Shown: piece after piece, positions 2,852-37,218 of the stretch | Position numbering within the stretch: position 1 is the stretch's first letter | How the letters are laid out: every line of letters starts with the position of its first letter | From: Candidatus Cloacimonadota bacterium | GTDB taxonomy: Bacteria; Cloacimonadota; Cloacimonadia; JGIOTU-2 | Direction of reading: 5' to 3' | Assembly (NCBI GenBank): GCA_016932035.1 | Contig: JAFGDR010000009.1 | Location: 34,845 to 98,844, forward strand | DNA length: 64,000 nt | Made by a program: the position numbers and the translations under genes | The notes under the pieces: generated by a model | What the model was told of the DNA's origin: nothing | What the model saw: only the letters and a program-made list of their open reading frames with translations | The model's database searches: none

Positions 2852-3307
2852 ATGATTTCATATCAGCATACCCAACGGAGTAAAATATTGATGTATATCA
2901 TCATCTTTGTACTGCTGTTCATGCTCTTTCTTATGTATATGTATGGATTCAACTGGATTGGAGCTGTGGTTATGGTCCTCATGATCTGTGCGCTGTATCT
3001 CTTCAATTCATTAACTGTGAATATCGATCAGGAAAAGGTAAAAGTTGCTTTTGGGTATGGTCTTATTAGGAAAATTATCTACCTAAGAATGATTCAATCT
3101 GCCGAAAAAGTAAGAAATAAATGGTTCTACGGATTTGGCATCAGACTCATTCCGGGTGGTCAAATGTGGAATGTTGCGGGATTTGATGCCATAGAACTTA
3201 AACTAAACAACGGAAGAGTTTTCCGCATCGGTACCGATGAGCCAGACAGACTTCTTGAAGCTATCCGATCTCAAATTGGAGTAAGTTATTTATCTCGAAT
3301 TTCGTAG
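2852..3307 (+). CDS. small membrane protein, hypothetical (two N-terminal hydrophobic helices plus soluble C-domain)
   Basis: 151 aa ORF 13 nt after pmbA, preceded by AAGGAG; N-terminus is strongly hydrophobic. Confidence 0.4.
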   Translation: MISYQHTQRSKILMYIIIFVLLFMLFLMYMYGFNWIGAVVMVLMICALYLFNSLTVNIDQEKVKVAFGYGLIRKIIYLRMIQSAEKVRNKWFYGFGIRLIPGGQMWNVAGFDAIELKLNNGRVFRIGTDEPDRLLEAIRSQIGVSYLSRIS

Positions 3308-3331
3308 CAACTTTACACATCTAGGAGTATA

Positions 3332-3910
3332 ATGAATGTACTGATTATTTATGCGCATCCTTATGAAGGAAGCTTTAATAAAGCGATACTTACCAATACG
3401 ATCGAAGGGCTAAACCATGCTGGTCATCAGTATGAGCTTATTGATCTGAATGGAGAGGGATTCAATCCCGTTCTAACCCGTGAAGAGTTGGAAAAATATC
3501 CTGAGGGTGAGTATCTCGATCCCATGGTGGGGGAGTATCTCACAAAAATTAAAGCAGCTGACCATCTTGTGTTTATCTTTCCGATCTGGTGGGGAGGTGT
3601 GCCTGCAATCCTGAAAGGTTTCTTTGATAAAGTATTGTTAAAAAAACAAACATATGACTTCAAGGGAAAATGGCCCCAAGGGAAGCTGAAAGGAAAATCC
3701 GCGACTGTTATTTCAACAATGAATAGCCCGAAAATTTTCTATAATCTCATAGGAAAAGCACCTATAAAGCACACTGTGATAAATGGCAGCTTGAAGCTGT
3801 GTGGTATTAAACCAGTTAAGTGGATTGAGTTCTCAGAAGTATTATCAATCTCACAAATAAAACGGGAAGGAATGCTCGATAGGATTTTAGATTATTTTAC
3901 GAATTTATAA
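3332..3910 (+). CDS. flavodoxin-like NAD(P)H dehydrogenase (quinone) / YwrO-MdaB-like oxidoreductase
   Basis: 192 aa; N-terminus 'MNVLIIYAHPYEGSFNKAI' and 'FIFPIWWGGVPAILKGFFDKV' match the Flavodoxin_2 / NAD(P)H:quinone reductase fold; AGGAG RBS. Confidence 0.7.
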   Translation: MNVLIIYAHPYEGSFNKAILTNTIEGLNHAGHQYELIDLNGEGFNPVLTREELEKYPEGEYLDPMVGEYLTKIKAADHLVFIFPIWWGGVPAILKGFFDKVLLKKQTYDFKGKWPQGKLKGKSATVISTMNSPKIFYNLIGKAPIKHTVINGSLKLCGIKPVKWIEFSEVLSISQIKREGMLDRILDYFTNL

Positions 3911-5125
3911 TTAATCAAAATTAACCTTGTGTGTCCCAAATAAATATGCCATTGAAAGTATTGAATTACATACACCAATTTGGCTTCTTCTCAGATGCCA
4001 ATGGTCACTTATATCTCCAGTTGATGCATATAACCAAACACCGCTAGAATTCGATTCCATCGATTTTTTTATTTTTTGAGTAAATTCATGATCTTTTGCA
4101 GCGTCGTTACTCCCTTCTGTATGAAATACATACAGTGATGAATTATGAGTATGAGAATCATCCATAGCAGCGAAGGCAAAACCACCAAAATTCTGATGAA
4201 AACCATCCATCAGTTGTAATAATTCATCGATACTCTCAAATCCAAGTCCTTTTGCAAAACCATCTATTGAATTATCGAGATCCTGAACCTTTATTCTAAG
4301 GTCATCATAACTTATGAACTCATCTTTCATTTCAATGGTGAAATGGTATCTTCTCACCTTACACCAGGAATATTCCCATGGAAAATATGCAGAGACTGTA
4401 GCGAGTGAATAGTATTCACCAGGTCCTTCATTTCCAAATACATAATAGCCACCTCCATTTTTATGAAGATCACAACTATGCATGCGACGGAACTTGTTGT
4501 GTAACCAATGCTTGATGAGGAAAGAATCTATGTCCTTAATAATATCACAAAATGAAAATTTAGTGCAACCTGATTCATCTTCTATTTGTTTCAGGTCATT
4601 GATCTTATTTGCTACAACACTGAAGGTTTCATTAACGATCTCTGGATAGTATTCGTATGCATGATAATATCCTTCACCTTCGAGATTTCCAAAATCATTT
4701 ACGGTAAGATTCATTGTTGAAAAAAGATGCATACTGTCGATAGGGGGATCGTTATAAATTGTTCCTTGAGGATTAATATACAGATTGAGCACAATCTCAT
4801 TATCATTTCTTTCACCACTCAGTTTCCAGATCTTGCAGTTACCGGTTAGATTTCCATCATCATCCTCGTAGAGATAAAAATCTTCATAAGATGTACTATA
4901 TTCAGGAAAGTCTGTTCCGCGCATACCTTTGATCAAAGTTTTGTCTTGGTAACTTTCCAGCCCAGTTAACGTAAAAGTGTACTTACCATTGAGTTTATCA
5001 TCAGTAAGATATTTAGTAACTTTTTCGCAGGAGAGGATAGTTAATATTAGAGAAGTTACTATAATAAAAAGTACTATTTTCAAGGAAGAGGAATGTAAAA
5101 ACTTATCTGTTAGTTTTGTGTTCAT
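3911..5125 (-). CDS. hypothetical secreted/lipoprotein, paralog A of a tandem pair (conserved Cys/His motifs)
   Basis: 404 aa; signal peptide then 'LSCEKVTKYLTDDK'; about 60% identical to the upstream paralog; conserved 'HTHN', 'HWHLRRS', 'GVCNS', 'CKVR', 'FCD'. Confidence 0.6.
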   Translation of the reverse strand: MNTKLTDKFLHSSSLKIVLFIIVTSLILTILSCEKVTKYLTDDKLNGKYTFTLTGLESYQDKTLIKGMRGTDFPEYSTSYEDFYLYEDDDGNLTGNCKIWKLSGERNDNEIVLNLYINPQGTIYNDPPIDSMHLFSTMNLTVNDFGNLEGEGYYHAYEYYPEIVNETFSVVANKINDLKQIEDESGCTKFSFCDIIKDIDSFLIKHWLHNKFRRMHSCDLHKNGGGYYVFGNEGPGEYYSLATVSAYFPWEYSWCKVRRYHFTIEMKDEFISYDDLRIKVQDLDNSIDGFAKGLGFESIDELLQLMDGFHQNFGGFAFAAMDDSHTHNSSLYVFHTEGSNDAAKDHEFTQKIKKSMESNSSGVWLYASTGDISDHWHLRRSQIGVCNSILSMAYLFGTHKVNFD

Positions 5126-5150
5126 GTTATCTTACGAAATGGATTTATTA

Positions 5151-6356
5151 TTAATCGTAATTTACTTTATTAGTTCCAATAAGATACATTATAAGAAGCT
5201 GAGAATTACACACACCGAAATCGCTTCGTCTCAAATGCCACGAGTCATGAATATGATGACCAGAATATATATAAACATTACCAACATGTGGATTGAAAGC
5301 ATCGGCAATAGTTTGAATGAATATATGATGTTTTGCTTCTTCATTTCGTTTAGAATCTTGATTTACGTAAATTGAAAGATTATGAGTATGAGTGTCATAA
5401 GCGGTACTAATTGCAAATCCTCCAAATTCGTTGTAAAAATCATCCATTGCATCGAAAAGAGCTTGTAAATTATCAAATCCCAATTCAGATGTGAAATTTT
5501 CTAGTTTTTTATCCAATGCTTCCATAGTAGTTTTCAAAACTTCATAAGTAAGAGTTTCTCCCTCAAGACTTATCTCGAAATGATATGCTCTCACTTTGCA
5601 CCAGGACCACTCAAATGGAAAATAAACGGTTTGAGTATAAGCTGGCAAGATACTGCCAGGTCCTTCGTGTCCGAAAATATAATATCCTCCTCCATCTTTA
5701 TGGAGATAGCAATTACCGATAGGTCTGAAAATTCCATCAGTAAGACATGATATCAGAAAAGAGGATATGCTTGAGATAACATCACAAAAACAAAAACGAG
5801 TATTAATTTCTTCAAAGGAAGAGAGTTCTTCGATTTTATTCGCAGAAACAGAATAGGTCTCATTCTCGATTTCCGGATAATATTCATAAGGATAGTACAT
5901 CCCATCACCTTCCAGGTTTCCGAAATCATCTATAGTTAAGTTCATTGTCGTAAATTTCTGCATATTATCAATAGATTCATCCAAATTTAAAGTTCCCTGC
6001 GGATGAATATAAAGATCCAATTCCACATCCTGACCGTCTCTAGTGCCTTGTATTTTCCAGATTTTACAATTACCGACAATATTACCTTCACCATCTTCAT
6101 ATAGATAAACATCATCGTAGGTTGTACTATATTCCGGATACTCGGTACCGCGTTTTCCTTTGATCATTGTGGTATCCTGATAACTATTTATTCCGGTTAA
6201 TGTGAAAGCGTATTTCCCACTGATTTTGTCATCAGTAAGATATTTCGTTACTTTTTCACAGGAAAGAACGTATAGAAACGATAGAATAATCAGTATTGCT
6301 ATAATTATTTTTAAGGGAATTGAATGGAAAACAAGGTTTACAAATTTAGTTTTCAT
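5151..6356 (-). CDS. hypothetical secreted/lipoprotein, paralog B of the tandem pair
   Basis: 401 aa; same N-terminal 'LSCEKVTKYLTDDK' and conserved Cys/His motifs; 25-nt gap to paralog A suggests co-transcription. Confidence 0.6.
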   Translation of the reverse strand: MKTKFVNLVFHSIPLKIIIAILIILSFLYVLSCEKVTKYLTDDKISGKYAFTLTGINSYQDTTMIKGKRGTEYPEYSTTYDDVYLYEDGEGNIVGNCKIWKIQGTRDGQDVELDLYIHPQGTLNLDESIDNMQKFTTMNLTIDDFGNLEGDGMYYPYEYYPEIENETYSVSANKIEELSSFEEINTRFCFCDVISSISSFLISCLTDGIFRPIGNCYLHKDGGGYYIFGHEGPGSILPAYTQTVYFPFEWSWCKVRAYHFEISLEGETLTYEVLKTTMEALDKKLENFTSELGFDNLQALFDAMDDFYNEFGGFAISTAYDTHTHNLSIYVNQDSKRNEEAKHHIFIQTIADAFNPHVGNVYIYSGHHIHDSWHLRRSDFGVCNSQLLIMYLIGTNKVNYD

Positions 6357-6431
6357 GTTGTCCTCCTAGGGAATTTTAATATATAAAAAAATTTAAATAA
6401 TTGTTATGATTTTGTGTCAAGAATAAAAATA

Positions 6432-6475
6432 TTTGACAAATAAAATTCATGTTCTAAAAAAGTGACCGACGGTCG
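6432..6475 (+). promoter_or_regulatory. putative promoter (-35 TTGACAAATAA) plus palindromic operator CCGAC-G-GTCGG upstream of tetR
   Basis: TTGACA at 6432-6437; inverted repeat ccgacggtcgg at 6465-6475, 25 nt before the tetR ATG (RBS ggag at 6491-6494). Confidence 0.35.
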
Positions 6476-6499
6476 GTCGAATATAAATCAAGGAGTATA

Positions 6500-7180
6500 A
6501 TGGCTCGAATCGTTAAGAAACATGAAGCTCGAAAGAACGAGATCCTCGACGTAGCTCAGAACCTGTTCTACACACAGGGTTTTGATAAAACTTCTATCAA
6601 CCAGATCATCGATGAAATCGGTATTGCTAAGGGAACAATATATCATTATTTTAAATCAAAATATGAGCTCCTCGATGCTGTGGTCGAGCGATTAATCTTC
6701 CAGATGAAGGATGCTGTTCAGCCAATTCTTCTGAATTCAGATTTAACACCTATACAAAAATTCAATATGGTTTTCAAGGCTATTGGGCAGATCAAATTTG
6801 AAAGAAGAGAATTCATGATAGACTTGCTCAAGGTGATGACACGAGACGAGAATGTCATTCTCCATCAGAAGATGGTGGCACGATCCATTGATTTTCTTTC
6901 TCCTGTACTATCAACAATAATCAAAGAAGGTGTTCTGCAGAATTGCTTTAACTGTGAGTATCCCGACGAAGTTGCGATATACATTATAGGTCTTTCAGGT
7001 TACTTGAATAGATATTTAACCAAAACGATCATCGATATCGAAGAAGGACGTGTAGAAGTTGATGTTTTCATTAATCATCTCAAAGGTTTCGAAAGCGTGA
7101 TAGAACGAATGATCGGTGCTGAAAAAGGCACACTTTCACTTGCGAACGAACAGCAGGTTCGAGATTTTTTTACCACATAG
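6500..7180 (+). CDS. TetR/AcrR family transcriptional regulator
   Basis: 226 aa; N-terminal HTH 'TSINQIIDEIGIAKGTIYHYFKSKYELL' is typical of TetR_N. Confidence 0.8.
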   Translation: MARIVKKHEARKNEILDVAQNLFYTQGFDKTSINQIIDEIGIAKGTIYHYFKSKYELLDAVVERLIFQMKDAVQPILLNSDLTPIQKFNMVFKAIGQIKFERREFMIDLLKVMTRDENVILHQKMVARSIDFLSPVLSTIIKEGVLQNCFNCEYPDEVAIYIIGLSGYLNRYLTKTIIDIEEGRVEVDVFINHLKGFESVIERMIGAEKGTLSLANEQQVRDFFTT

Positions 7181-7189
7181 GAGGTTTAA

Positions 7190-7891
7190 ATGCCATTACT
7201 CGAATTACAAGGCGTAACTAAAAATTACACAAAAGGGGAGCAGATCATTCCTGCACTCCGTGGAGTCGATCTGATTATTGAAAAAGGAGATTTCCTTTCG
7301 ATAGTCGGTCCATCCGGAAGCGGGAAATCAACGTTGCTTAATATCATAGGGTGTATCGATACACCAACAGATGGAAGAGTGCTGTACAATGGAAATGATC
7401 TGACAACACTTTCTGATAAAGAAAAGACCTATTACCGAAAAGAAAATATCTCATTCATCTTTCAATCCTATAACCTGATACCTGTATTGACGACTCGGGA
7501 GAACGTGGAACTTCCGCTCATCATCGAAAAGAAGTTCAGCAAAAAAGAGATCCAGGACAAAGCGATGAAGATCATCGAGATCGTTGGACTCGAAGATATG
7601 GCTGATCGATTCCCACGCGAACTTTCGGGCGGTCAAGAGCAACGCGTTGCAATTGCACGTGCATTGGTGAAAAATCCGCTTGTAGTACTAGCAGATGAAC
7701 CCACAGCAAATCTCGATTCTGAAATGTCCGAAGATATCATATCCGTTATGCAGAAAATGAATGAGGAGATACATACCACTTTCATTTTCTCAACTCATGA
7801 CCGGTTGGTGGAGAAACATGCAAAGCGAGTCATAATCCTTAGAGACGGCATGATAGCAAAAGACGAAAGGAAGAATCATGGCAACGCTTAA
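7190..7891 (+). CDS. ABC transporter ATP-binding protein (MacB/LolD-type)
   Basis: Walker A 'GPSGSGKST', signature 'LSGGQEQRVAIARAL', Walker B 'VVLADEPT'. Confidence 0.85.
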   Translation: MPLLELQGVTKNYTKGEQIIPALRGVDLIIEKGDFLSIVGPSGSGKSTLLNIIGCIDTPTDGRVLYNGNDLTTLSDKEKTYYRKENISFIFQSYNLIPVLTTRENVELPLIIEKKFSKKEIQDKAMKIIEIVGLEDMADRFPRELSGGQEQRVAIARALVKNPLVVLADEPTANLDSEMSEDIISVMQKMNEEIHTTFIFSTHDRLVEKHAKRVIILRDGMIAKDERKNHGNA

Positions 7892-9128
7892 TAAGATCGC
7901 ATGGCGCAATGTTCGCAGGAACAAGAGACGCACCTTTCTTTCTGCCCTTGTGATCGCTGTCGGACTTGCTATCTATATTTTGATGAATTCAGTTATGACC
8001 GGTATGAATCGGGCAAATATCGATAATCTCATTGATCTCAGTACTGCTTCAATAAAGATTTCAACAGAAAAGTATCATGAAGAAAAGGAAGCACTTCCCC
8101 TAAAATATGGAATTACAAATGCAGATATGCTGATTTCATTTATAAAAGATCAATCGGATGTCATTGGAGTGACACCGCGAACGCAATTTCTCGGACAACT
8201 CTCGAATTGGGAAGACATCATGCCGGTAATGGGGCAGGTCATCAATGTTGATACAGATATGACAGTTTTTGGTTTTGACAAATACATTATTGGGGAATTT
8301 CTTTCGAACGAGCAGGATAATGAGATCGTACTCGGAAAAGACCTGGCAGAGGAAATGGGCGTTGAAGCCGGTGACTACATAACACTCTATGCTCTTACCA
8401 AATTCGACAGCCGTAATGCTGATGAGTTCTATATTACCGGTTTGCTTGGTACAACTGACCCCAATATCAATCTCAATACTGCTTTGATCAGCTACCAAAC
8501 CGCAAATGACTTTCTTGATCTTGAAAATCTTGTTACTGAAGTGGATGTTGCAGTTGAGAGACGAGTTAACTTTGATCGGTTTACAAATGATGTGAACGAT
8601 CTTGCAACGACGCTTCAGCAATCGTATCCTGAACTTCACATCGAAACCTTTGAGGAAATGGCACAGGCGTTTCTCGGAATCACAGAGCAGAAACAAGTTT
8701 TTGGATCTATCATTATGCTGATCATCCTGGCAATCGCTGCGGTCGGCATTTTCAATTCAGTTCTCATGAGTGTTTACGAGCGCATCCGGGAGATCGGTGT
8801 GCTTCGGGCGCAGGGATTTGAAAGAAAAGAGATCGTTAAACTCTTCCTGTGGGAAGGATTGATCATTGGATTTTTTGGAAGCATCATGGGTGTTACTCTT
8901 GGATGTGGTGTGAATCTGTATCTTGTAATTGTAGGTTTTCCATTGGATAAATTTGCTGGTTTCCAGAGCAGCGGCATACCTTATTGGGGAGTTCTTTACG
9001 GTGAATGGAATATTGGTGCCATCGTCTTTGCATTCTGTTTTGGTCTTGTCGTTGCACTTGCTGCAAGTTACCTTCCTTCAAGAATGGCTTCGCGAATGGA
9101 AGTGACTAAAGCGCTGCGTTTCGTGTAA
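7878..9128 (+). CDS. ABC transporter permease, FtsX/MacB-like
   Basis: 416 aa; N-terminal TM, large periplasmic domain, C-terminal 3-TM FtsX-like region; overlaps the ATPase gene by 14 nt. Confidence 0.75.
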   Translation: MATLNKIAWRNVRRNKRRTFLSALVIAVGLAIYILMNSVMTGMNRANIDNLIDLSTASIKISTEKYHEEKEALPLKYGITNADMLISFIKDQSDVIGVTPRTQFLGQLSNWEDIMPVMGQVINVDTDMTVFGFDKYIIGEFLSNEQDNEIVLGKDLAEEMGVEAGDYITLYALTKFDSRNADEFYITGLLGTTDPNINLNTALISYQTANDFLDLENLVTEVDVAVERRVNFDRFTNDVNDLATTLQQSYPELHIETFEEMAQAFLGITEQKQVFGSIIMLIILAIAAVGIFNSVLMSVYERIREIGVLRAQGFERKEIVKLFLWEGLIIGFFGSIMGVTLGCGVNLYLVIVGFPLDKFAGFQSSGIPYWGVLYGEWNIGAIVFAFCFGLVVALAASYLPSRMASRMEVTKALRFV

Positions 9129-9138
9129 GGAGTTCACT

Positions 9139-10377
9139 ATGTCATTTATACAGAAATTTGCATTAAGAAATGTGGGAAGAAATAAACGCCGCTCCCTGCT
9201 TGCAGTCATTTCAGTCATGCTGTCTATTATGTTGATCATATTTCTCCAGGGATTGATCGGTGGTTTTCTTGATAACCTTGTTCATAATTATACGAAAAAT
9301 GAGACCGGACATATCAGAATTGCAACTAAAGGATTTGAGGAACGAGCAAAATTCTTTCCAGTTACAGAGAATATACAAAATCCAGAACAGATCATAAAAG
9401 CAATTACTGATGATGAATCACTGAACAAAAAGATAAAGTCGATCAGCCAGAGGATCACTTTTGGGGTGTTGCTGACAAACGATGGTAATAACAAACAGGC
9501 AGTTGCCTATGCAGGTGATCCTGAAATTGAGAAAAATTTACTCATGCTTCAGAAATCACTTCTGCCTGGAGGTAGGTACCTGCAAAATGATGATGAAGCA
9601 ATTGTAGGTAAGATTTTGGCTGATGACCTTGGTTATACACTTGGTGATAAGATAAGCGTTATGACACAGGGAAGCGACTATGCTCTTCATCTGAAGAAAT
9701 TCACGATCGTCGGTATCTTTGAAACTGGACTTACATTGTATGATGAGAAGCTGTTCCAGATACCGCTTGAAGGTGCGCAGGATTTACTTCGTATGCCGGG
9801 TGAAGCACAGCAGATCGTGATCATGCTGGATAACTATCACGAATCAGAGAAGTTAGCTGAAGATATTTCATCGAAAGTGGCAAAGTATGATGTCATCGCT
9901 TCGGCATGGTCTGAGATTGGCGGATATGCAATGTGGGTTGATATGGCAAAAAGTATCTACAACTGGATCTATATTATCATAGCTTTTCTCGGTGCATTCA
10001 TTATTGCAAACATACTGATGATGGTTGTTCTCGAGCGACGAAAAGAGATCGGTATCATCAAATCGATGGGATTTACCAATGGTCAGGTACTTTCCATGTT
10101 CGTGAATGAAGGCATGCTGCTCGGATTTATGGGAAGTGTTGTTGGTGCGATCATCGGAATTGGTATTGTGACCTTCCTGCACTATCATGGCATTGATTTC
10201 TCAAAGATGATGGGTGCTATTGAGTTCCCCATGAGTAATATTATCTATCTCAAAATAAATATTCTCAATTTTATTATTGCAGTCTTACTGGGCACGATCG
10301 TTTCGACGATCGTATCATTCTTCCCATCCAGAAGAGCTGAAAAGATGAAGATCGTCGATTCATTGAAAAGCGTATAA
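9139..10377 (+). CDS. ABC transporter permease, FtsX/MacB-like (second copy)
   Basis: 412 aa; same architecture as the preceding permease; starts 'MSFIQKFALRNVGRNKRRS'. Confidence 0.75.
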   Translation: MSFIQKFALRNVGRNKRRSLLAVISVMLSIMLIIFLQGLIGGFLDNLVHNYTKNETGHIRIATKGFEERAKFFPVTENIQNPEQIIKAITDDESLNKKIKSISQRITFGVLLTNDGNNKQAVAYAGDPEIEKNLLMLQKSLLPGGRYLQNDDEAIVGKILADDLGYTLGDKISVMTQGSDYALHLKKFTIVGIFETGLTLYDEKLFQIPLEGAQDLLRMPGEAQQIVIMLDNYHESEKLAEDISSKVAKYDVIASAWSEIGGYAMWVDMAKSIYNWIYIIIAFLGAFIIANILMMVVLERRKEIGIIKSMGFTNGQVLSMFVNEGMLLGFMGSVVGAIIGIGIVTFLHYHGIDFSKMMGAIEFPMSNIIYLKINILNFIIAVLLGTIVSTIVSFFPSRRAEKMKIVDSLKSV

Positions 10378-10389
10378 AAAGGAGTTATC

Positions 10390-11136
10390 ATGAAAAAAAT
10401 AACTGCGATGTTGATCTTTATATTGATTTCAGGTTATCTGTTTGGACAAAATTTGTTCCTTACAGGCCTTGAAATTCTACAAAGAATCGATGAAAATGAG
10501 TTTTACAGAACGATTGAATACACAGGCACGATGACCATTCACATTAATGATGAGGTGAGAACGAAAAAGATGACGACTCAGGCAAAAACTGATGGTCACA
10601 AAGCGTTGGTCGAATTTAACAATCCAGAGGATTTCGGCACCAAATATTTGATGATGGATGATGAATTGTGGATTTATTTTCCAGGTGAAGAAGAGGTGGT
10701 TAAAATATCGGGACACATGCTTAAGGAAGGTATGATGGGCAGTGATTTTTCCTATGAAGATGCTCTTGAAGCAAGCAAGATCGCTGAGAAATACAATGTA
10801 CAAATTGCGAGACAGGATACACTGAATGGTCATGTATGCTGGGTGCTGAAGCTCGATGCAAAGATAAAAGATGTGCCGTATTATTCTCGAGAAATGTGGG
10901 TCGATCAGGAACTCTACGTCCCATGGAAAGAAGAGATGTTTGCAAAATCAGGTCGGCTTCTGAAAGAGATGAATGTGTTGGAGATCAAACAGTTTGGGAA
11001 TCGATATTTTCCTGTGAAGTCTGAGATGGTGAATAAACTGAGAAAGAACAGCAAAACGGTTTTCGAACTCGAGGATATTGCCTTTGATGTTGATCTACCT
11101 GATGATATGTTTAGCTTAAGATATTTAAAGCATTAG
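10390..11136 (+). CDS. LolA-like outer-membrane lipoprotein-sorting protein family
   Basis: 248 aa; signal peptide; sequence type commonly found as the accessory gene of MacB-type ABC operons. Confidence 0.55.
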   Translation: MKKITAMLIFILISGYLFGQNLFLTGLEILQRIDENEFYRTIEYTGTMTIHINDEVRTKKMTTQAKTDGHKALVEFNNPEDFGTKYLMMDDELWIYFPGEEEVVKISGHMLKEGMMGSDFSYEDALEASKIAEKYNVQIARQDTLNGHVCWVLKLDAKIKDVPYYSREMWVDQELYVPWKEEMFAKSGRLLKEMNVLEIKQFGNRYFPVKSEMVNKLRKNSKTVFELEDIAFDVDLPDDMFSLRYLKH

Positions 11137-11144
11137 GGTCAGTT

Positions 11145-12242
11145 ATGAAAAAATATGGATTCAAAATTTTATTACTTGTTATGCTAACATCAAGTCTCTT
11201 TGCTGATACTCAATCGGGTTTACAAATATGGGGTTCGAATTTTATCGATCTCAGTGGATATCACTACCTGAATAATGAAAAAGACTCTCTCAAGATCGGT
11301 GCAATGAATACGTTTCGGTTGAATTTCCAGAACAGGAACAAGCGTTATGCAAAGATCGTTGGTAATCTCGACCTGATCATACCTTTTGGTTATACAGCAG
11401 ACCAATTTCAGGATTTGAACGATACGTCGAATACACTCTCAACACCATATTATCCGCTCTTTGTTTATGGGAATACGCCCGTTCTACTCGACATCAGGAA
11501 ATTATACGTTTCTGTGTATTTGCCATTTGCTGATATCTCTCTTGGAAGGCAGATTATCAATTATGGAAAGGGAGTCGTTTTCTCTCCAATCGATATGTTC
11601 TCGACAGTCGATGTGACAAATATCAATTTTGAACGACACGGCAGCGATATAGCTGCGATAAAGATACCGTTTTCATTCCTTTCCGGGCTTGATCTGATAA
11701 CTGAACTTCCAAGAAAAAATCATGAGTATTCGACAGCAGTTCGTGGCTATTTGAATACCATGGGATTTGATTTCGCACTCAATACGATTTATAAGCATAG
11801 AGCAGAAGAGTTGATTGCCGGACTGTCATTTAAGGGTGATGCTTTCTTTGGCGTGTATGGAGAACTCGTTGAACATTTCGCAAACGATTATTCGGATAAA
11901 TATTTTGAAGGAATGCTCGGACTTGATTATTCGATCGACAATACGTATATTTTTACAACTGAATATTATTACAAAAACAGCAATATACAAAATGAATGGG
12001 GGAAACATAATCTATTCTTGTCCTTCCAATATGTTATAAACGATCTTATGAATGTTTCTACACATGTGATAGGGAGTGATATCGGACAAGACAATCAAAT
12101 GGTCATATATATGGGGCAGTTCTTCTACAATATCTTGCAGAATATAGATCTCATTACGTATGCTCGATATTTTTCATACAAAAACGATTTAGACATAGTA
12201 CCCGATCTGGAATATGCGGTAAGGGTAGAGGTAAAGTTTTAA
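11145..12242 (+). CDS. putative outer-membrane beta-barrel protein
   Basis: 365 aa; signal peptide 'MKKYGFKILLLVMLTSSLFA'; alternating hydrophobic pattern; C-terminal ...VRVEVKF with terminal Phe (OMP beta-signal). Confidence 0.5.
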   Translation: MKKYGFKILLLVMLTSSLFADTQSGLQIWGSNFIDLSGYHYLNNEKDSLKIGAMNTFRLNFQNRNKRYAKIVGNLDLIIPFGYTADQFQDLNDTSNTLSTPYYPLFVYGNTPVLLDIRKLYVSVYLPFADISLGRQIINYGKGVVFSPIDMFSTVDVTNINFERHGSDIAAIKIPFSFLSGLDLITELPRKNHEYSTAVRGYLNTMGFDFALNTIYKHRAEELIAGLSFKGDAFFGVYGELVEHFANDYSDKYFEGMLGLDYSIDNTYIFTTEYYYKNSNIQNEWGKHNLFLSFQYVINDLMNVSTHVIGSDIGQDNQMVIYMGQFFYNILQNIDLITYARYFSYKNDLDIVPDLEYAVRVEVKF

Positions 12243-31014: not shown

Positions 31015-34000
31015 ATGCGTAGACTTATTTTTTTGTTGTCGCTTATTATTATCTTCATATTCAATCCATTGTTCGGGAAGAAACAAATCCTAGATGTTGA
31101 ACCCTATCCATACAAATGGCAATTCCAGCAGGATACAAAACCGATTAAAACTGAAATAATTGGAAATCCCTTTGATTATGCTGGAAAACGGATTGGAATT
31201 GACGTTCGCAATTTCGAGCTTCCAAAAGCATATGAAAATTCATATCGACTTGCATGCAGATTTCCACTCATTGATTATATCTCGAATCAACCGCTGTATA
31301 TGAAACAATGGGCTGAAGAAGTAAGTGACACCTTTTTGATTATTCAAAAGCAGAGGCGAATTGAAGTAACCGGATATGCTTTGGAGTTGTTAAGAGATAC
31401 TGAAACATTTCCTTCCATGAAAATCTCGCATGATGTTGATTTATTCAAAGATTTTAAAGATATGTTGTTCTTTCGCTCCTTTACTTCGGAATATCGTATG
31501 GCAGTCTTAAATCTTGTTGAAAACTTTCTTATTGCAAAATCAATGATAACAAAAGCAAAGGAAGATCTGACTAACGAAGATCTGAAGTTTTTTAATGATA
31601 ATCCCGGTTATTTTCTCATTCCTGATGGAGAACATATGCCTTCCTTAACCGGAGATAATTCAACTCAATTAGACTTCATTAAGCATGCAAGGAATGTTAA
31701 GTTCCAGTACATATTCTTTGCCGCAAAGATCATGTCAGAAGCAATTTATAGATATTGGGATACTGTTAAAAACATGGAGGTATCAGACATATATTCAAAA
31801 CCCGCAGCCTATGAAGAACCATTCATCTATGTGACAAATTCCCTAAGGATCGTAATCAGGGGTATCGGAAATGATGTCTATACAAAAGATGCAGATCTGC
31901 TCATTGACGTGGGTGGTAATGATGTTTATCAAAATAATGCAGGGGGATGCAGGTCGAGTTTTGAAGAAATCGCAGTGTGTATCGACCATACAGGAAATGA
32001 TTTATACCAAGCTGGAGAAGATCTCTATGTGCAGGGATTTGGATTTCTCGGATGTGGTTTTCTCGTAGATTTCCAGGGGAATGATATATATGAAGCAAAA
32101 CATTTTTCACAAGGAGTTGGAGTCTGTGGTATTGGTGTTTTGTGGGATGTGGAAGGTTTTGACAGTTATGATGCTCACGGAATTTGTCAGGGTGCTGGAA
32201 TAGTCGGGCTTGGCATGCTATTGGATGACGCAGGAGAAGACCTTTATGATTGTTCCACAATCGGACAAGGGAGTGCAACAACCCTAGGTTTGGGCATTCT
32301 CTCTGATCTTGAAGGAGATGATCGTTACTATCTCGCAATTGACGAGTCGAAGGATAAACTCGGCTATCTTCCCGGCTATGGTCAGGGTGGAGCACTTTCA
32401 TTTAGAAATTACCCATGGAAAAAAAAACTTACTGCATATGGTGGTGCTGGATTACTATTAGATGCATCAGGTAATGATCGATATTGGACAAAGGGCTGGA
32501 GTGATCAGGGTGGGAGTTACATCATGTCTTTAGGCGCACTTGTTGATATTCAAGGAAATGATCACTATACGGCTAATACTGGCCAGGGGAGTGGCATTCA
32601 TATAACTAACGCGATCCTTATCGATAAAGACGGTCATGATATCTACGAAGGAGGATTCCGAACTGGAGGATCGGGAGGAGACAGATCCCCGGGATTTTTG
32701 CTGGACTATGCAGGAAACGATGTATATAGATCTCACACTTCTTCTTATGGTACAGGAGTAAAACCTTCAAGTTACTCACTTTTTATTGATTATCTCGGTG
32801 ATGATACGTATATCTGCGATAATCCAAAGGACAAAATAACATTCAACAATTGGCAGAGTTTTGGTGGTGTATGGCCAGAATCGGATCCCAATAATTGGCC
32901 TTATGCATTATGCTTTGATCTTGAAGGTATTGATGACTATCAGGTTCTCTACCACGAAAACAATTGTGAAAGATCGAGTTTTGGACATGGAATTTTTATC
33001 GATATGGAATGGAGTGGGGGAGATGTTATCGGTCATGTAGATAACACTTTGAAAGAGCAGCTTTTACCGCAAATTCCTGATGATGTCATTCAATCGGAAT
33101 ACAATGAAAATATTCGAGGATTATTATCTCCCAGTACATTTATGCGATTTCAAACGATAGGTAAACTTATTAGTGACTCTATCAAGGTCATACCGTTACT
33201 TGCTGAGATCTTAAACATATCAGAAAATAGAAGTTTAAACAGAGATATACTCGAAATTATTCATTATAAGTTAGTTGAAAATGAAATTAATGAAGCTATA
33301 GAACAATCTTTGATAAATTGCTTGAGTTCTCCAGATGATGAGGTGCGATATATTATTGCTGATGATATTGGAATGTGGAATATTGCATGCGGTGAAGAAG
33401 CTCTGATTCAGTGTGCACAAACTGATACTTCTGCAGATGTTAGGTTTGCTGCTGTACAATCCCTAATGCGTTTTAAATCAAAAAAAGCTCTTCCTTTCGT
33501 ACGCAGATTGAGTGAGAAAGATCATTCAGCTGATGTCAGGAGAATAGCTGTTAAATATCTTGGCATCATAGATGATGGCATCGATCCTTTTCCGTTACTG
33601 AAATATGCCCTTGAACACGATTCTTCTCCAGCTGTCCGGGTGGAAGCTGCAAGATCACTGGGAAAACGAAATGATGAACGAGCTGTTCCACTCCTCGAAA
33701 AAGCAGCTCAGTCCTTTGATGCCTATCTACAACGTGCAGCGGGGAAAAGCCTTGCTGATATGGGGTATATTGAAGGAATAGAGATACTCATTGAATCTCT
33801 TTCATTTCCCTCAATCGATGCATTTGAAAACTACAATTATAATATTCCTAATTTTATTGCAATGTACACGGGAAATGATTTTTCTGAACAAGTCCGTTAT
33901 GATCTGCATACATGGAAGGATTGGTTCGACAAGAATAAGGATTCTATCAATATTGAAGTGAATATTGACATTATGGAAAAGTATAATCTGCTGATTGACT

Positions 34001-34362
34001 CACTATCCTCATTTGAACAGGTGAGTAAAATTCAGCCACTTGATAATTTCGTGAATAAATATCCTCATTTAATGAAAGCAAAAAAGGATCTGGCTTCGAT
34101 TCTCAATAATGTAGCATGGGATTTGGTTACTGCTCCTACAGGTACAAGGAGGTATGATCTTGAGAAAGGACTCGAGTATGCGCTGCGTTGCGTCGAGTTA
34201 GATCCTCAGCTGAATTATATTGATACTCTAGCTGAAGCATATTTACAAAGCGGATTATATCAACAAGCTCTTGACATATGTAATGACGTTCTTAAAGACC
34301 ACCCTGAGAATTCAATGTTTATTGACCGAAAATCAGTCTGTGAATCATTTCTCAATAAATAA
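31015..34362 (+). CDS. large secreted mosaic protein: ~13 tandem 'D-x-x-G-[ND]-D-x-Y' repeats (beta-solenoid-like), PBS-lyase-type HEAT repeats, C-terminal TPR-like region
   Basis: 1115 aa; signal peptide. Repeats across 31861-32960: DVGGNDVY, DHTGNDLY, DFQGNDIY, DVEGFDSY, DDAGEDLY, DLEGDDRY, DASGNDRY, DIQGNDHY, DKDGHDIY, DYAGNDVY, DYLGDDTY, DLEGIDDY. HEAT repeats 'DVRFAAVQSL', 'DVRRIAVKYLG', 'PAVRVEAARSLG' (~33330-33720). Confidence 0.6.
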   Translation: MRRLIFLLSLIIIFIFNPLFGKKQILDVEPYPYKWQFQQDTKPIKTEIIGNPFDYAGKRIGIDVRNFELPKAYENSYRLACRFPLIDYISNQPLYMKQWAEEVSDTFLIIQKQRRIEVTGYALELLRDTETFPSMKISHDVDLFKDFKDMLFFRSFTSEYRMAVLNLVENFLIAKSMITKAKEDLTNEDLKFFNDNPGYFLIPDGEHMPSLTGDNSTQLDFIKHARNVKFQYIFFAAKIMSEAIYRYWDTVKNMEVSDIYSKPAAYEEPFIYVTNSLRIVIRGIGNDVYTKDADLLIDVGGNDVYQNNAGGCRSSFEEIAVCIDHTGNDLYQAGEDLYVQGFGFLGCGFLVDFQGNDIYEAKHFSQGVGVCGIGVLWDVEGFDSYDAHGICQGAGIVGLGMLLDDAGEDLYDCSTIGQGSATTLGLGILSDLEGDDRYYLAIDESKDKLGYLPGYGQGGALSFRNYPWKKKLTAYGGAGLLLDASGNDRYWTKGWSDQGGSYIMSLGALVDIQGNDHYTANTGQGSGIHITNAILIDKDGHDIYEGGFRTGGSGGDRSPGFLLDYAGNDVYRSHTSSYGTGVKPSSYSLFIDYLGDDTYICDNPKDKITFNNWQSFGGVWPESDPNNWPYALCFDLEGIDDYQVLYHENNCERSSFGHGIFIDMEWSGGDVIGHVDNTLKEQLLPQIPDDVIQSEYNENIRGLLSPSTFMRFQTIGKLISDSIKVIPLLAEILNISENRSLNRDILEIIHYKLVENEINEAIEQSLINCLSSPDDEVRYIIADDIGMWNIACGEEALIQCAQTDTSADVRFAAVQSLMRFKSKKALPFVRRLSEKDHSADVRRIAVKYLGIIDDGIDPFPLLKYALEHDSSPAVRVEAARSLGKRNDERAVPLLEKAAQSFDAYLQRAAGKSLADMGYIEGIEILIESLSFPSIDAFENYNYNIPNFIAMYTGNDFSEQVRYDLHTWKDWFDKNKDSINIEVNIDIMEKYNLLIDSLSSFEQVSKIQPLDNFVNKYPHLMKAKKDLASILNNVAWDLVTAPTGTRRYDLEKGLEYALRCVELDPQLNYIDTLAEAYLQSGLYQQALDICNDVLKDHPENSMFIDRKSVCESFLNK

Positions 34363-34427
34363 TCATTAACATATTGACGGAAATATTTCATTTTCATAGA
34401 GTTGAAATCAACTTCATGAACTAAAGG

Positions 34428-36098
34428 ATGCGCATGGAAAAATTTGATATTATTGATTATAAAAAAGTAAATGAAGTACTACATCAATTAAATGAATTGG
34501 TTGAGAAACAAAGCAAGCATATAAGGGAACTCATACATATTGGAGAATCTCTTTCCGCAAAAAATAGTCTCATTAACATCTTCTCTATAATTCTTAAAGA
34601 GGCAATGGATTATGCTAACACAGATGGAGGAACGATTTATGTAATTTCTAATGATAAACAATATCTAGATTTTAAGTTACTCTATAATAAATCTCTTCAA
34701 CAGCGAATGGGAGATATTAATTCTCCAGTAACCTGGCCAAGTGTTCCCTTATATAATTGTGATGGTTCCCCAAATATGAATCATATGGTTTCGTATGTAT
34801 TCCATACAAAGGAGAGTAAAGAATTTGATGATGTGTACAAACAAGACATTTTTGATAATACTGGTACAAAGAAATATGATATGCGAAATAATTATCACTC
34901 AAAATCTATGGCAGCAATACCATTGACAAATCATGAAGACGAGGTATTAGGAGTGATTCAGCTTATTAATGCACAAGATGATGAAGGAAAGATTATCTCT
35001 TTCAACGATAATCATTTATTAATGCTCAATTCCCTTGCATCACAGGCAGCTATCTCTCTTTCAAATAGCAGGTTAATAGAACATCTTGAAGAATTACTTC
35101 TGCAATTTATCAAATCAATTGCTTCTGCAATCGATAAGAAGTCAAAATATACTGCAGGACATGTCAAACGGGTGGCAACCCTTACAGAAGATATTGCACA
35201 TGTGATAAACAATCAGGACAGAGGTCCGTTTCAGGATGTTTTTTTTAGTGCCGATCAGCTTAAGGAAATTTCAATGGCAGGTTGGATGCATGATGTCGGA
35301 AAAATAGTTACGCCTGAATGTATTATGGATAAATCCACAAAACTCGAGAAGATTGTTGATAGAATTGAAATCGTGAATATTCGCTGTGAACTAATAAAAC
35401 AGGTCGTTTTTAAAGATTTAAATAAAATGCGCGCTCAAGGAGTTCTTACTGGTAAAAAAGAACGCGAATTAAATATGATCATTAGTCAAATTGAAAAGGA
35501 TTTCCAGCTAATAGATGAATTGAATTATGGTGCGGAAATTTTCTCTGATGAATACACAAAGGAGATCGAGAGAATCGAATCATTTTCTTATACATCTGAT
35601 GGCATTGAATATAAGCTACTATCTGAAGACGAAGTAAAGAATCTCAAAATAAGTAGAGGTACCCTGACAGAAGAGGAATTTGCAGTTATGAAAGATCATG
35701 CACAGGTTACATGGGAAATGCTTTCACCTCTTCCATTACCAAAGAAGTATGAAAATGTACCCCTTTTTGCTGCATCTCACCATGAAAGACTTGATGGTGG
35801 AGGTTATCCAAACAGACTCCCAGAAAATAAAATACCCCTTCAAGCACGTATAATAGCTGTGGCAGATGTTTACGAAGCTCTTTTAAGTGAGCGTCCATAC
35901 AAAAAAGGAAAAAAACTAAGTGAAGCATTGACCATCATGGCACATATGGTTCTTGAAAATAAATTGGATTGGACCGTTTTAGAAATCCTCTTAGATTCGG
36001 AATTGTATCTAACATTTGCACAGAAAATAGCAAAACCTGACCAGATCGATGAAGTGTCCTTAAAAGATATAAAAAAGATATACCATAAATTAGACTGA
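34428..36098 (+). CDS. GAF domain-containing HD-GYP phosphodiesterase (c-di-GMP hydrolase)
   Basis: 'HDVGK' HD motif and 'HHERLDGGGYP' HD-GYP signature. Confidence 0.8.
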   Translation: MRMEKFDIIDYKKVNEVLHQLNELVEKQSKHIRELIHIGESLSAKNSLINIFSIILKEAMDYANTDGGTIYVISNDKQYLDFKLLYNKSLQQRMGDINSPVTWPSVPLYNCDGSPNMNHMVSYVFHTKESKEFDDVYKQDIFDNTGTKKYDMRNNYHSKSMAAIPLTNHEDEVLGVIQLINAQDDEGKIISFNDNHLLMLNSLASQAAISLSNSRLIEHLEELLLQFIKSIASAIDKKSKYTAGHVKRVATLTEDIAHVINNQDRGPFQDVFFSADQLKEISMAGWMHDVGKIVTPECIMDKSTKLEKIVDRIEIVNIRCELIKQVVFKDLNKMRAQGVLTGKKERELNMIISQIEKDFQLIDELNYGAEIFSDEYTKEIERIESFSYTSDGIEYKLLSEDEVKNLKISRGTLTEEEFAVMKDHAQVTWEMLSPLPLPKKYENVPLFAASHHERLDGGGYPNRLPENKIPLQARIIAVADVYEALLSERPYKKGKKLSEALTIMAHMVLENKLDWTVLEILLDSELYLTFAQKIAKPDQIDEVSLKDIKKIYHKLD

Positions 36099-36139
36099 AT
36101 ATAAATATTTAGTATTTTTTGTAGTATTAAAGGAGTAAT

Positions 36140-37084
36140 ATGAAAGAACTTCAAATATCAATTTTATATGTAGAAGATGAACATATCATTCTTCAATCAG
36201 TAAAAGATATGCTTGAGGGTAAAGTCAGGAATCTTTATCTAGCGATGAGTGCCGAGGAAGCCCTGGATCTCTTTAAAAAACATAAACCAGATGTGGTGAT
36301 CACAGATATTAAAATGCCCGGTATGGATGGGCTTGAATTACTACGCGAGATCAAGAAAATTAAACTCGACACAAAACTTGTCGTGTTAACAGCGTTCGGA
36401 AAAAGGAATTATCTCATGGATGCAATTTCCATAGGCGTAGATAAGTTTATTCTCAAGCCCGTTGAAGAGGATTTCTATTATAAAGAACTCCAGGACCTTT
36501 CCAGATCGATCAAGCTTGAAAAACAACTCAGGCTTGAAGAGGAGCGAAGGAGAAAGGCACAGAAAGAGCTAGAAGAAGCTAATAAACGATTAAGTAAATT
36601 AGCACGAACAGATCCTTTGACTGGACTATCAAATAGAAGAGATATATATGAGAAAATAGAGTATGAGATAAAACGTTTTGAGAGAAATAATATTCCCTTT
36701 TCCATAGTGATCGGAGATATTGATGATTTTAAGGATGTGAATGATAATCTTGGCCATGATGCTGGTGATTTTGTTCTCTTCTCCATAGCTCGGCATATAC
36801 GTTCAATGCTCAGAAAACAGGATGTTGTTGGACGATGGGGCGGAGAAGAATTTATACTTATGCTGCCAAACACAAACCTGGAAGGTGCCAAGATCATAAC
36901 TGAAAGAGTTCGGAAGTCGATTAAAGAAAAAGTTATTCAATATAAAGAGAATGATGTTTCAATAACAATTACCTTCGGAATTTCAGTGTTTGATGAAATG
37001 GAGCCAATCAACGATTGCATAAAAAAATCAGATACTGCATTATATAAAGGGAAAAAGGAAGGGAAGAACTGTGTGACAGTTTGA
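36140..37084 (+). CDS. response-regulator receiver fused to GGDEF diguanylate cyclase (active-site GGEEF)
   Basis: REC 'ILYVEDE...VVITDIKMPGMDG'; GGDEF 'RWGGEEFILML'; AAGGAG RBS. Confidence 0.85.
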   Translation: MKELQISILYVEDEHIILQSVKDMLEGKVRNLYLAMSAEEALDLFKKHKPDVVITDIKMPGMDGLELLREIKKIKLDTKLVVLTAFGKRNYLMDAISIGVDKFILKPVEEDFYYKELQDLSRSIKLEKQLRLEEERRRKAQKELEEANKRLSKLARTDPLTGLSNRRDIYEKIEYEIKRFERNNIPFSIVIGDIDDFKDVNDNLGHDAGDFVLFSIARHIRSMLRKQDVVGRWGGEEFILMLPNTNLEGAKIITERVRKSIKEKVIQYKENDVSITITFGISVFDEMEPINDCIKKSDTALYKGKKEGKNCVTV

Positions 37085-37218
37085 TAAATTATTATAATAA
37101 ATATATATTACTATTAAAATCAGCATATTATAAAAAAACTTGACGCTCCTCCAGACCAGCTTACCTTTTTGTTCAAATTTTTTTGAATAAAAAAATAATT
37201 CATGAAAGCAAGAAGAAA

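Follow-up and report, generated by a model that had tools for sequence, protein, structure and literature searches.

Calycin-type barrels are known from avidin and streptavidin and, in Bacteroides, from BT_2261 (3h3i), a 'putative lipid binding protein', and BT_2262 (5fq3). Surface lipoproteins of the neisserial type, such as TbpB, fHbp, and NHBA, consist of an 8-stranded barrel and an accessory beta domain, while beta-sandwich or jelly-roll modules are represented by CBM6/35/61, the ColG collagen-binding domain, the nucleoplasmin core, and complement C3/C5 and related thioester-protein chains. In Bacteroidota, the lipoprotein export signal is K-(D/E)2 or Q-A-(D/E)2 directly after the +1 Cys (Lauber et al. 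2016, PMC5080379).

Here, we analyzed two adjacent genes, paralogs A and B, in a window of 64,000 nucleotides from a Candidatus Cloacimonadota bacterium (contig JAFGDR010000009.1). With a probability of roughly one half, we read them as lineage-specific tandem duplicates of an exported, lipid-anchored two-domain envelope protein that acts in binding or as a scaffold and is not a Cys/His metal enzyme.

A tandem gene pair from a rare family

The ORF list agreed exactly with the two minus-strand ORFs and the 25-nt spacer reported from the sequence-only reading. Paralog B (5151-6356, minus strand, 401 aa) is the canonical family copy, and paralog A (3911-5125, minus strand, 404 aa) is a diverged copy that is intact and constrained. 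No terminator-like site was found in the 25-nt spacer between them (5126-5150, minus strand), and the two genes are probably co-transcribed, judging from this arrangement. Their identity had been put at about 60%, which was somewhat high, as full-length BLASTP gave 52% identity and 69% positives (E 2e-137), and the N-domains (64% identity) are more alike than the C-domains (46%). All of the motifs quoted earlier occur in both copies (LSCEKVTKYLTDDK, F[CS]FCD, C[YD]LHK[DN]GGGYY, WSWCKVR, HTHN, and WHLRRS...GVCNS), as do the further His-containing motifs HK and GHEG. The description of these motifs as strictly conserved is true of the two paralogs only, for their His positions vary across the family.

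The NCBI counterpart of the B product in the source MAG is annotated 'hypothetical protein', and a relative of B (P0001) is 88% identical, its cluster including MBN2016734.1 from Candidatus Cloacimonadota. The TypA encoded in the window is identical to MBN2016744.1. The homolog search with B yielded 68 homolog clusters, and the family amounts to 109 representatives among the 1.84 billion proteins searched. Its hosts are uncultured anaerobes, mostly Bacteroidales, together with Ignavibacteria/Chlorobiota and Cloacimonadota MAGs and a few outliers, and all loci holding members are on MAGs or metagenome contigs. The view that the pair belongs to no assignable known family held up in Pfam, NCBIfam, and PDB-sequence searches. 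Neither A nor B matched Pfam or NCBIfam even at E<=10, and PADLOC and PHROGs gave no match to either paralog. When Pfam was applied to all 45 aligned members, the only match was to GH43_C (a 'lipocalin-like' model) at E=0.059. Whether the query was the single protein, the full profile, or the C-domain profile, PDB sequence searches returned only noise, including a match to the influenza HA2 coiled coil (E ~0.07). In the exhaustive search, distant multi-stretch matches to giant HYR/Big_13 proteins and a plant gag protein were dismissed as repeat or composition artefacts. A phage origin of the family was rejected, since none of the viral contigs searched carries a relative. The family is a rare and unnamed lipoprotein family, an ordinary "dark" family and one of many built from common folds.

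The proposal that both products are lipoproteins is supported. Each starts with a signal peptide that has a positively charged n-region and a hydrophobic h-region (MKTKFVNLVFHSIPLKIIIAILIILSFLYVLSC in B and MNTKLTDKFLHSSSLKIVLFIIVTSLILTILSC in A), followed by a lipobox of the form [LVI][ASTVIL][GAS]-C with the +1 Cys, namely V-L-S-C33 in B (residues 1-33, 6258-6356, minus strand) and I-L-S-C33 in A (residues 1-33, 5027-5125, minus strand). Cys33 is invariant in the core alignment (A1), Cys stands at the lipobox column in all 98 sequences aligning there (98/98), and 91 of the 115 full-length members have a lipobox. The sequence would direct Sec export, SPII processing at the lipobox, and acylation of Cys33, then outer-membrane anchoring, and we infer such an anchored envelope location for both A and B.

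Two predicted domains and their conserved residues

The AlphaFold model (pLDDT 87) has two domains, predicted to be a small calycin-type beta-barrel and a beta-sandwich stapled by putative disulfides. In B, the N-terminal domain (5817-6227, minus strand, about residues 44-180) starts with G-x-[WY]-x-F and is predicted to form the 8-stranded antiparallel up-and-down beta-barrel of the avidin/lipocalin (calycin) type, while neither paralog matched the calycin sequence families (Pfam lipocalin, avidin, and lipocalin-like) at E<=10. The C-terminal domain (5154-5801, minus strand, residues 186-401) is the family-defining module, modeled as a beta-sandwich with helical inserts and carrying the motifs DGGGYYxFGxEGPG, EWSWCKVR, GGFAIS, IxDxWHLRRS, and GVCNS. 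Foldseek with the full model against PDB gave nothing convincing, and its matches to PNGase and Xyn30D were rejected (TM 0.14-0.16).

Conservation differs between the two halves. The C-domain holds 20 of the 24 invariant columns and has a mean pairwise identity in the family of 47%, versus 36% for the N-domain, whose invariant positions are three Gly only. Moreover, distant relatives replace or drop the N-barrel while keeping the C-domain, and one subfamily consists of the C-domain only and lacks Cys. The barrel could in principle be the functional part, sequestering a hydrophobic ligand or a vitamin like a small-molecule carrier, with the C-domain being structural only; given that it is the less conserved half, that it is swapped or lost in distant relatives, and that it has no avidin or lipocalin sequence-family match, we regard this as very unlikely.

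The C-terminal module of ~200 residues (DGxGYYxFG ... GxFA[IV]S ... YVN ... IxD ... YLxGT) occurs in several architectures. FCB-group anaerobes have it in lipoproteins, joined to the calycin barrel; elsewhere it follows other N-termini or forms a Cys-less standalone secreted protein, whose gene is the last of a conserved four-gene operon that also encodes a Tat lipoprotein. It may be asked whether the module is an undescribed extracytoplasmic domain, a fold variant of its own that is shuffled between architectures and serves an envelope function such as a new recognition or catalytic activity, glycan- or Ca-dependent and tied to T9SS surface biology. We consider this broader proposal quite unlikely. 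If true, such a new outer-envelope recognition or catalytic module would be a building block for the surface biology of uncultured anaerobic bacteria of the FCB group, including Cloacimonadota, of which little is known.

The conserved Cys and His residues had been taken for a metal-binding or catalytic cluster, and this claim did not survive the family alignment. A metalloprotein that binds Zn, Fe, or Cu through these residues for catalysis or redox would find some support in the four Cys and several His common to both paralogs, and in the invariance of the four mature Cys (C191, C216, C253, and C383) in the 45-sequence core alignment. Nevertheless, the His positions are variable, each being kept in no more than about 30-40% of the members aligned: among ~140 sequences, H219 is present in 45 (otherwise E/Q/S/Y/K), H325 in 38 (otherwise G/N/K/R), and H374 in 54 (otherwise Y/S/N). 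Many motifs are retained in orthologs, as the earlier reading would have it, and the His positions are the part that is not. The Cys, for their part, go in pairs and not as a set of four. C253 and C383 were replaced together in 10 sequences, versus one clear single loss (P0109), and C191 and C216 were replaced together in four; the C191-C216 pairing is less secure because C191 was lost alone in 5 distant sequences, which may be alignment slippage. A whole Cys-free subfamily still has the C-domain. Protein export is moreover known to favor disulfides, and this pairwise loss in an exported protein leads us to expect two structural disulfides, C191-C216 and C253-C383. We therefore hold a Cys/His metalloprotein to be extremely improbable, and our best explanation takes the conserved Cys as structural and the His as lineage decoration.

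An exported enzyme of a new kind, in which the C-domain would act as a hydrolase or lyase on envelope or environmental polymers via conserved Asp, Glu, Arg, and Tyr, deserves separate consideration. R211, E249, R256, Y245, Y258, D371, R377, S378, and N384 are conserved at 70-95% in the core family, and several loci have, next to them, genes for T9SS-secreted proteins or genes of hydrolase type (Metallophos, Amidohydro, and Peptidase_S41). The conserved charged residues of the core family (R211, E249, R256, D371, R376, and R377) could, from the alignment, equally form an active site. The residues had indeed been called catalytic-looking, whereas the universal positions of the wider superfamily are mainly Gly and aromatic. 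Across three subfamilies, the Gly and aromatic positions and the polar D221, T324, N332, and D371 are universal, no polar residue typical of catalysis was found to be so, and R256, R377, and E249 drop out in the wider superfamily that includes the Cys-less C-domain-only subfamily. An enzyme is, in our assessment, unlikely. Between the two options offered earlier, a novel secreted enzyme or a binding protein, the second is favored and the first is not, and we infer binding rather than catalysis.

In the binding reading, the poorly conserved 8-stranded barrel would form a pedestal or, possibly, a cup for a small ligand, and the strongly conserved C-terminal beta-sandwich, stapled by its two disulfides, would be the functional head. 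The head would expose a surface rich in Gly, aromatic residues, and Asp (DGGGYY, Y245, Y258, D371, and W373, joined in the core family by R256 and R377), and this surface may bind a partner, be it a glycan, an envelope protein, or another ligand, possibly via an Asp/Asn/Thr calcium-type site and with no catalysis.

The tandem duplication occurs only in the window and in two other loci (L008 and L039). In columns at least 80% conserved, A deviates from the consensus at 20 of 84 and B at 3 of 84; the deviations of A are common to its ortholog (P0008), and A keeps every invariant column of the core alignment. The dN/dS of A versus its ortholog in L008 is 0.066, and that of B versus its own ortholog is 0.40, a figure inflated by a replaced signal peptide. 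The C-domain of A has diverged fast, yet A is under strong purifying selection. Third-codon-position identity between A and B is flat, at ~0.5 in the LSCEKVTKYLTDDK stretch as elsewhere, and recent gene conversion was therefore rejected as the cause of the identical stretch. A single-copy ancestor would have been duplicated, with B keeping the ancestral head and the head of A diverging and then being fixed under purifying selection, a pattern suggestive of a changed specificity or of B and A acting as partners.

Gene neighborhood

The pair lies divergently beside a module (6500-12242, plus strand) in which Pfam recognized a TetR, an ABC ATPase, two MacB/FtsX permeases, and a LolA_like protein, in agreement with the TetR/MacB/LolA-like module proposed earlier. 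A 365-aa signal-peptide ORF, formerly listed as a putative outer-membrane protein, is also part of the module and had no family match. In the divergent intergenic region (6357-6499), B has an AGGAGG Shine-Dalgarno sequence (6362-6367) and, as its putative -35, a TTGACA hexamer (6420-6415), both on the minus strand, while tetR has a TTGACA of its own on the plus strand (6433-6438). The region also includes GACCGAC-G-GTCGGTC (6464-6478), a perfect 7-1-7 palindrome and likely the TetR operator. The palindrome, both hexamers, and the Shine-Dalgarno sequence are conserved in L008, where the whole intergenic region is 83% identical. The palindrome sits on the tetR promoter, ~50 bp upstream of the putative -35 of B, and because of this position, TetR control of the pair appears unlikely.

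A functional link between the pair and the module was not borne out, in that their adjacency is confined to the window and its close relatives L008 and L039 and the likely operator is on the tetR promoter. Co-occurrence with the transporter genes of the module was absent in all other loci with flanking sequence (~30 independent), and no universal partner gene was found over ~30 independent loci. In L008, GatD/GatE-like genes adjoin the pair, an apparent archaeal signal that was set aside once the window had been linked to a Cloacimonadota MAG. Overall, the neighborhoods vary too much to point to a particular ligand or partner.

We also considered whether the protein works alongside secreted envelope machinery, as an accessory or as a partner. 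It could be a lipoprotein with a tethering, chaperoning, or inhibiting role toward T9SS cargo, or the adjacent MacB/LolA-like transporter could have it as a substrate or an adaptor. Staphostatins and Inh are beta-barrel protease inhibitors and offer an analogy for the inhibitor version. In L003/L020, L023, and L024, the direct neighbor, with the same orientation, is a gene for a T9SS cargo of ~590 aa with beta-propeller repeats, T9SS cargo is nearby in L004, L009, and L030, and the organism of the window encodes many T9SS cargo proteases. Further, in both L008 and L039 the pair has remained with the TetR/MacB/LolA-like module despite a rearrangement breakpoint, and a TolC/MFP/RND pump is next to the family gene of L001. 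However, each of these associations holds for a minority of the ~30 independent loci, many of which have unrelated neighbors; the adjacent T9SS cargo is without a recognized protease domain; and the pair is divergent from the MacB operon and not co-transcribed with it, the operator being placed for tetR. Such a partnership is, on balance, quite unlikely.

Comparison with known systems

These results provide a first description of a family so far annotated only as "hypothetical protein", covering its domain boundaries, probable disulfides, motifs, taxonomic range, and the occurrence of the C-domain on its own, and they remove a misleading "metal enzyme" lead. Compared with avidin/streptavidin, BT_2261, and BT_2262, A and B have no sequence-family match, their barrel is the least conserved part, their C-domain is without a counterpart in those proteins, and their genes are outside an SusC/D-type locus. 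From TbpB, fHbp, and NHBA they differ in domain order and handle architecture; there is no homology, A and B have no Slam or TonB-receptor neighbors, and the phyla differ. The structural scores against the beta-sandwich and jelly-roll modules were at the level of a generic fold, with no sequence similarity, and about half of the C-domain (five helices, a Gly-rich loop, and the two putative disulfides) is without an equivalent in them.

With regard to export, the K-(D/E)2 signal has been validated in Bacteroidota only, and the A/B pair is from Cloacimonadota. The sequence from the Cys of the pair is C-E-K-V-T-K-Y-L-T-D-D-K, in which the two adjacent acidic residues come at +10/+11 (Cys = +1), and thus has no positional fit to the Bacteroidota-type signal. 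Most Bacteroidales members, on the other hand, fit it: they start with C-[KQNEH]-K-D-D-D (e.g., CKKDDD, CEKDDD, and CQKDDD) and are ~50% acidic at +4 to +6, and from this signal after the Cys they are probably exposed on the cell surface, as are the described surface lipoproteins of Bacteroidota.

Gene pair, family and export

Paralogs A (3911..5125, minus strand, 404 aa) and B (5151..6356, minus strand, 401 aa) were described in the sequence-only reading as ~60% identical. The paralogy stands, while the figure was slightly too high: BLASTP gave 52% identity and 69% positives over the full length (E 2e-137). Every shared motif listed there was found in both proteins. Each N-terminus has a basic n-region followed by a hydrophobic stretch of ~20 residues and a lipobox with Cys33 (VLSC in B and ILSC in A). 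Gene B is preceded by a strong AGGAGG Shine-Dalgarno sequence and, further upstream, a TTGACA hexamer. Given that the 25-nt spacer between the genes has no terminator-like site, A and B are probably co-transcribed. A perfect 7-1-7 palindrome (GACCGAC-G-GTCGGTC, 6464-6478) lies just upstream of tetR, immediately downstream of a candidate tetR -10 element and ~50 bp upstream of the TTGACA of gene B. It is 100% conserved in L008, a locus closely related to the window whose whole intergenic region is 83% identical, and is likely the operator for TetR of tetR/macB (the MacB/LolA-like operon), not a site from which B is regulated.

Neither A, B nor any of 45 aligned homologs matched Pfam, even at E<=1-10, and searches of NCBIfam, PADLOC, PHROGs and PDB sequences gave no match either, in line with the earlier failure to assign the pair to a known family. 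The relative P0001 is 88% identical to B, and its cluster includes MBN2016734.1, annotated "hypothetical protein". TypA of the window is identical to MBN2016744.1, in keeping with its origin in a Candidatus Cloacimonadota MAG. A word-indexed search returned 68 clusters, each of ~400 aa and each "hypothetical", and an exhaustive HMM search of 1.84 billion representatives returned 109 matches, several of which are fragments or artefacts. GTDB species genomes contained 23 loci, in MAGs only. They were mostly from Bacteroidales, with some from Chlorobiota/Ignavibacteria, Cloacimonadota (60%) and one bin with the label "Armatimonadota" (66%); bins carrying the labels Truepera, Burkholderiales and Acidobacteriota yielded a few distant copies. 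A further 16 loci came from JGI metagenomes, and the viral contigs searched contained no member. By these searches, the family is rare, phylogenetically restricted and outside every named sequence family.

A recognisable lipobox was present in 91 of 115 full-length members. In Bacteroidales members, the Cys is typically followed by K-D-D-D, K-K-D-D-D or E-K-D-D-D, and ~50% of the residues at +4 to +6 are acidic. This matches the K-(D/E)2 signal by which Bacteroidota lipoproteins are exported to the cell surface (Lauber et al. 2016, PMC5080379), so surface exposure is predicted for these members. The Cloacimonadota pair has a common post-Cys stretch, C-E-K-V-T-K-Y-L-T-D-D-K, which was absent from other lipoproteins of the window and may have a lineage-specific role in tethering or sorting. 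Over this stretch the two proteins are 83% identical, whereas third codon positions are only ~50% identical; by this measure it is maintained by selection, and recent gene conversion was rejected as its origin.

Domain architecture and conserved residues

An AlphaFold2 model from the 45-sequence alignment (pLDDT 87.4, pTM 0.81) comprises a calycin/avidin-type barrel (B residues ~44-180) and a beta-sandwich C-domain (residues 186-401). As a kind of protein, this is an exported beta-rich lipoprotein with no feature that a specialist would find surprising. The C-domain carries 20 of 24 invariant columns, and its mean pairwise identity is 47%, versus 36% for the barrel; a small-molecule carrier centred on the barrel is very unlikely in our judgement. 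Because the C-domain follows other N-termini in distant relatives, and the 237-aa proteins of subfamily P0168-P0178 consist of a Sec signal peptide and this domain with nothing else, it is, on sequence grounds, an evolutionarily independent unit. No specific structural relative of it was found among solved structures. We consider it improbable that the C-domain represents a mobile extracytoplasmic module of a new kind, with an unassigned envelope function.

The C-domain-only secreted proteins (237-256 aa, without Cys) are encoded by the terminal gene of a conserved four-gene operon (L036 3227-7714, L037 3276-7771, and L038) in genomes of 55-58% GC. The other genes encode a 446-aa Tat-signal lipoprotein, a 404-407-aa protein without assigned function and a 383-aa HEAT-repeat protein. 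In L037, a BTAD-AAA_16-TPR regulator is located upstream.

Conservation of individual residues was scored on 164 family sequences aligned to the profile. His was found at H219 in 45 of ~138 aligned sequences (usual replacements E, Q, S, Y and K), at H325 in 38 of ~147 (G, N, K and R) and at H374 in 54 of ~143 (Y, S and N). All four mature Cys were present in 102 sequences. C253 and C383 were jointly replaced in ten (P0071, P0136, P0150, P0121-P0124, P0098, P0117 and P0118), with a clear single loss only in P0109, and C191 and C216 were jointly replaced in P0074, P0098, P0117 and P0118. Five distant sequences lacked C191 alone, perhaps because the alignment slipped in the low-confidence linker helix. 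This pairwise loss, together with lipoprotein-type export and the retention of the domain in the Cys-free 237-aa subfamily, points to two probable structural disulfides (C191-C216 and C253-C383), not a metal cluster. The sequence-only reading had taken the Cys/His clusters as potential metal ligands; with variable His and Cys lost in pairs or altogether, a Cys/His metalloprotein is highly improbable.

Residues retained across the three subfamilies are mainly Gly and aromatic, with few polar ones: D221-G-x-G-x-Y226, G229, G234, an aromatic residue at 245, G312-x-F314-A315, T324, Y330, N332, G366, I369, D371, an aromatic residue at 373, Y391, G394 and T395. R256, R377 and E249 are confined to the core family. 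The pattern fits a scaffold or binding module, and conserved catalytic machinery would be a poorer fit; a novel exported enzyme is rather doubtful. Speculatively, the C-domain possibly holds an Asp/Asn/Thr calcium-type site, as occurs in many CBM and CUB sandwiches.

Divergence of the two copies

The duplication was found only in the window and in the closely related loci L008 and L039, and every other locus has one copy. At the 84 columns at least 80% conserved in the family, B agrees with the consensus at 81, whereas A departs at 20 (e.g., P212R, D221N, P238S, W250Y, N332F and G366S in B numbering), and these departures recur in its ortholog P0008. The two are 64% identical in the barrel and only 46% in the otherwise better conserved C-domain. 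With a dN/dS of 0.066 against its L008 ortholog, A is nonetheless strongly constrained; the higher value for B (0.40) is explained by a replaced signal peptide, 30% identical to that of its ortholog at the protein level, versus 98% for the mature part. This looks like asymmetric divergence after duplication, with altered specificity or a B/A partnership, rather than decay.

Divergence between the two strains is mosaic (window 3911-6499 versus L008 4037-6621). Nucleotide identity is 90.6% for mature A and 100% for its signal peptide, versus 97.6% for mature B and only 52% for its signal peptide, and dS is 0.43 and 0.12 for A and B, respectively. These differences suggest recombination or segment replacement inside the locus.

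Genomic context and functional reading

A Pfam/NCBIfam scan recovered the divergent module as first described. It encodes TetR, an ABC ATPase, two MacB/FtsX permeases, a LolA_like protein and a 365-aa signal-peptide ORF, previously called an OMP, for which Pfam and NCBIfam gave no match. The opposite flank (165-2839 and 2852-3910, plus strand) encodes a TldD/PmbA metallopeptidase pair, whose stop and start codons overlap, and then a small membrane protein and a flavodoxin-like NAD(P)H reductase convergent with A. The stops of the reductase and A abut (3910/3911), leaving no space for a terminator between them. In L008 (8800-12167) and L039 (10625-13005), GatD_N/Asparaginase and GatB_N-type genes (GatD/GatE-like, usually archaeal) stand in place of the TldD/PmbA region, which places a rearrangement breakpoint immediately beside A. 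Adjacency to TetR/MacB persists in both despite this rearrangement, although both are close relatives.

No universal neighbour was found across ~30 independent family loci, and three partial associations recur. First, a ~590-aa beta-propeller-repeat T9SS cargo gene directly adjoins on the same strand in the Bacteroidales loci L003/L020, L023 and L024, and T9SS cargo is nearby in L004, L009 and L030. Second, the upstream genes encode TPR-containing sensors or regulators in L004, L006/L049, L017 and L024, and a BTAD-AAA-TPR protein in L009/L014; the latter is likewise found upstream of the C-domain-only operon in L037. Third, two lineages have an adjoining export system, of the MacB/LolA-like type in the window and of the TolC/MFP/RND type in L001. 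A role as accessory, inhibitor or tether for T9SS cargo or an export module is, in our view, unlikely.

Elsewhere in the window, very large ORFs form a long array on the plus strand (38221-63107), and four of them were scanned with Pfam. They encode two gingipain-like C25 peptidases (38221-43662 and 43743-47234), a beta-propeller-repeat protein (47247-50240) and an M14 carboxypeptidase (50244-52520), all on the plus strand and all but the first with a Por_Secre_tail or CHU_C match. Similar sorting-domain tails were located by tblastn at ~43.3-43.7 kb, ~55.5 kb and ~60.4 kb. In several Bacteroidales loci, the T9SS cargo adjoining the lipoprotein family is a relative of the 47247-50240 protein. 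Upstream of the array, a signalling cluster (31015-38205, plus strand) encodes a 1115-aa HEAT-repeat protein, a GAF and HD_5 (HD-GYP-like) protein, a response-regulator-GGDEF diguanylate cyclase and an LVIVD-repeat lipoprotein. Separately, in L009 (1-2966, Guaymas hydrothermal sediment), two radical-SAM/SPASM genes, a PqqD-like gene and an S24 peptidase, a few kb upstream of the homolog, look like a RiPP maturation cassette.

We favour, at a probability of roughly 50%, an outer-membrane-anchored two-domain binding or scaffold lipoprotein that is exposed at the cell surface in Bacteroidota. The barrel would be a pedestal or perhaps a cup for a small ligand, and the disulfide-stapled C-domain would be the conserved functional head. 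In fold class, A and B are similar to calycin-type lipoproteins and beta-sandwich binding modules, but they belong to no named sequence family.
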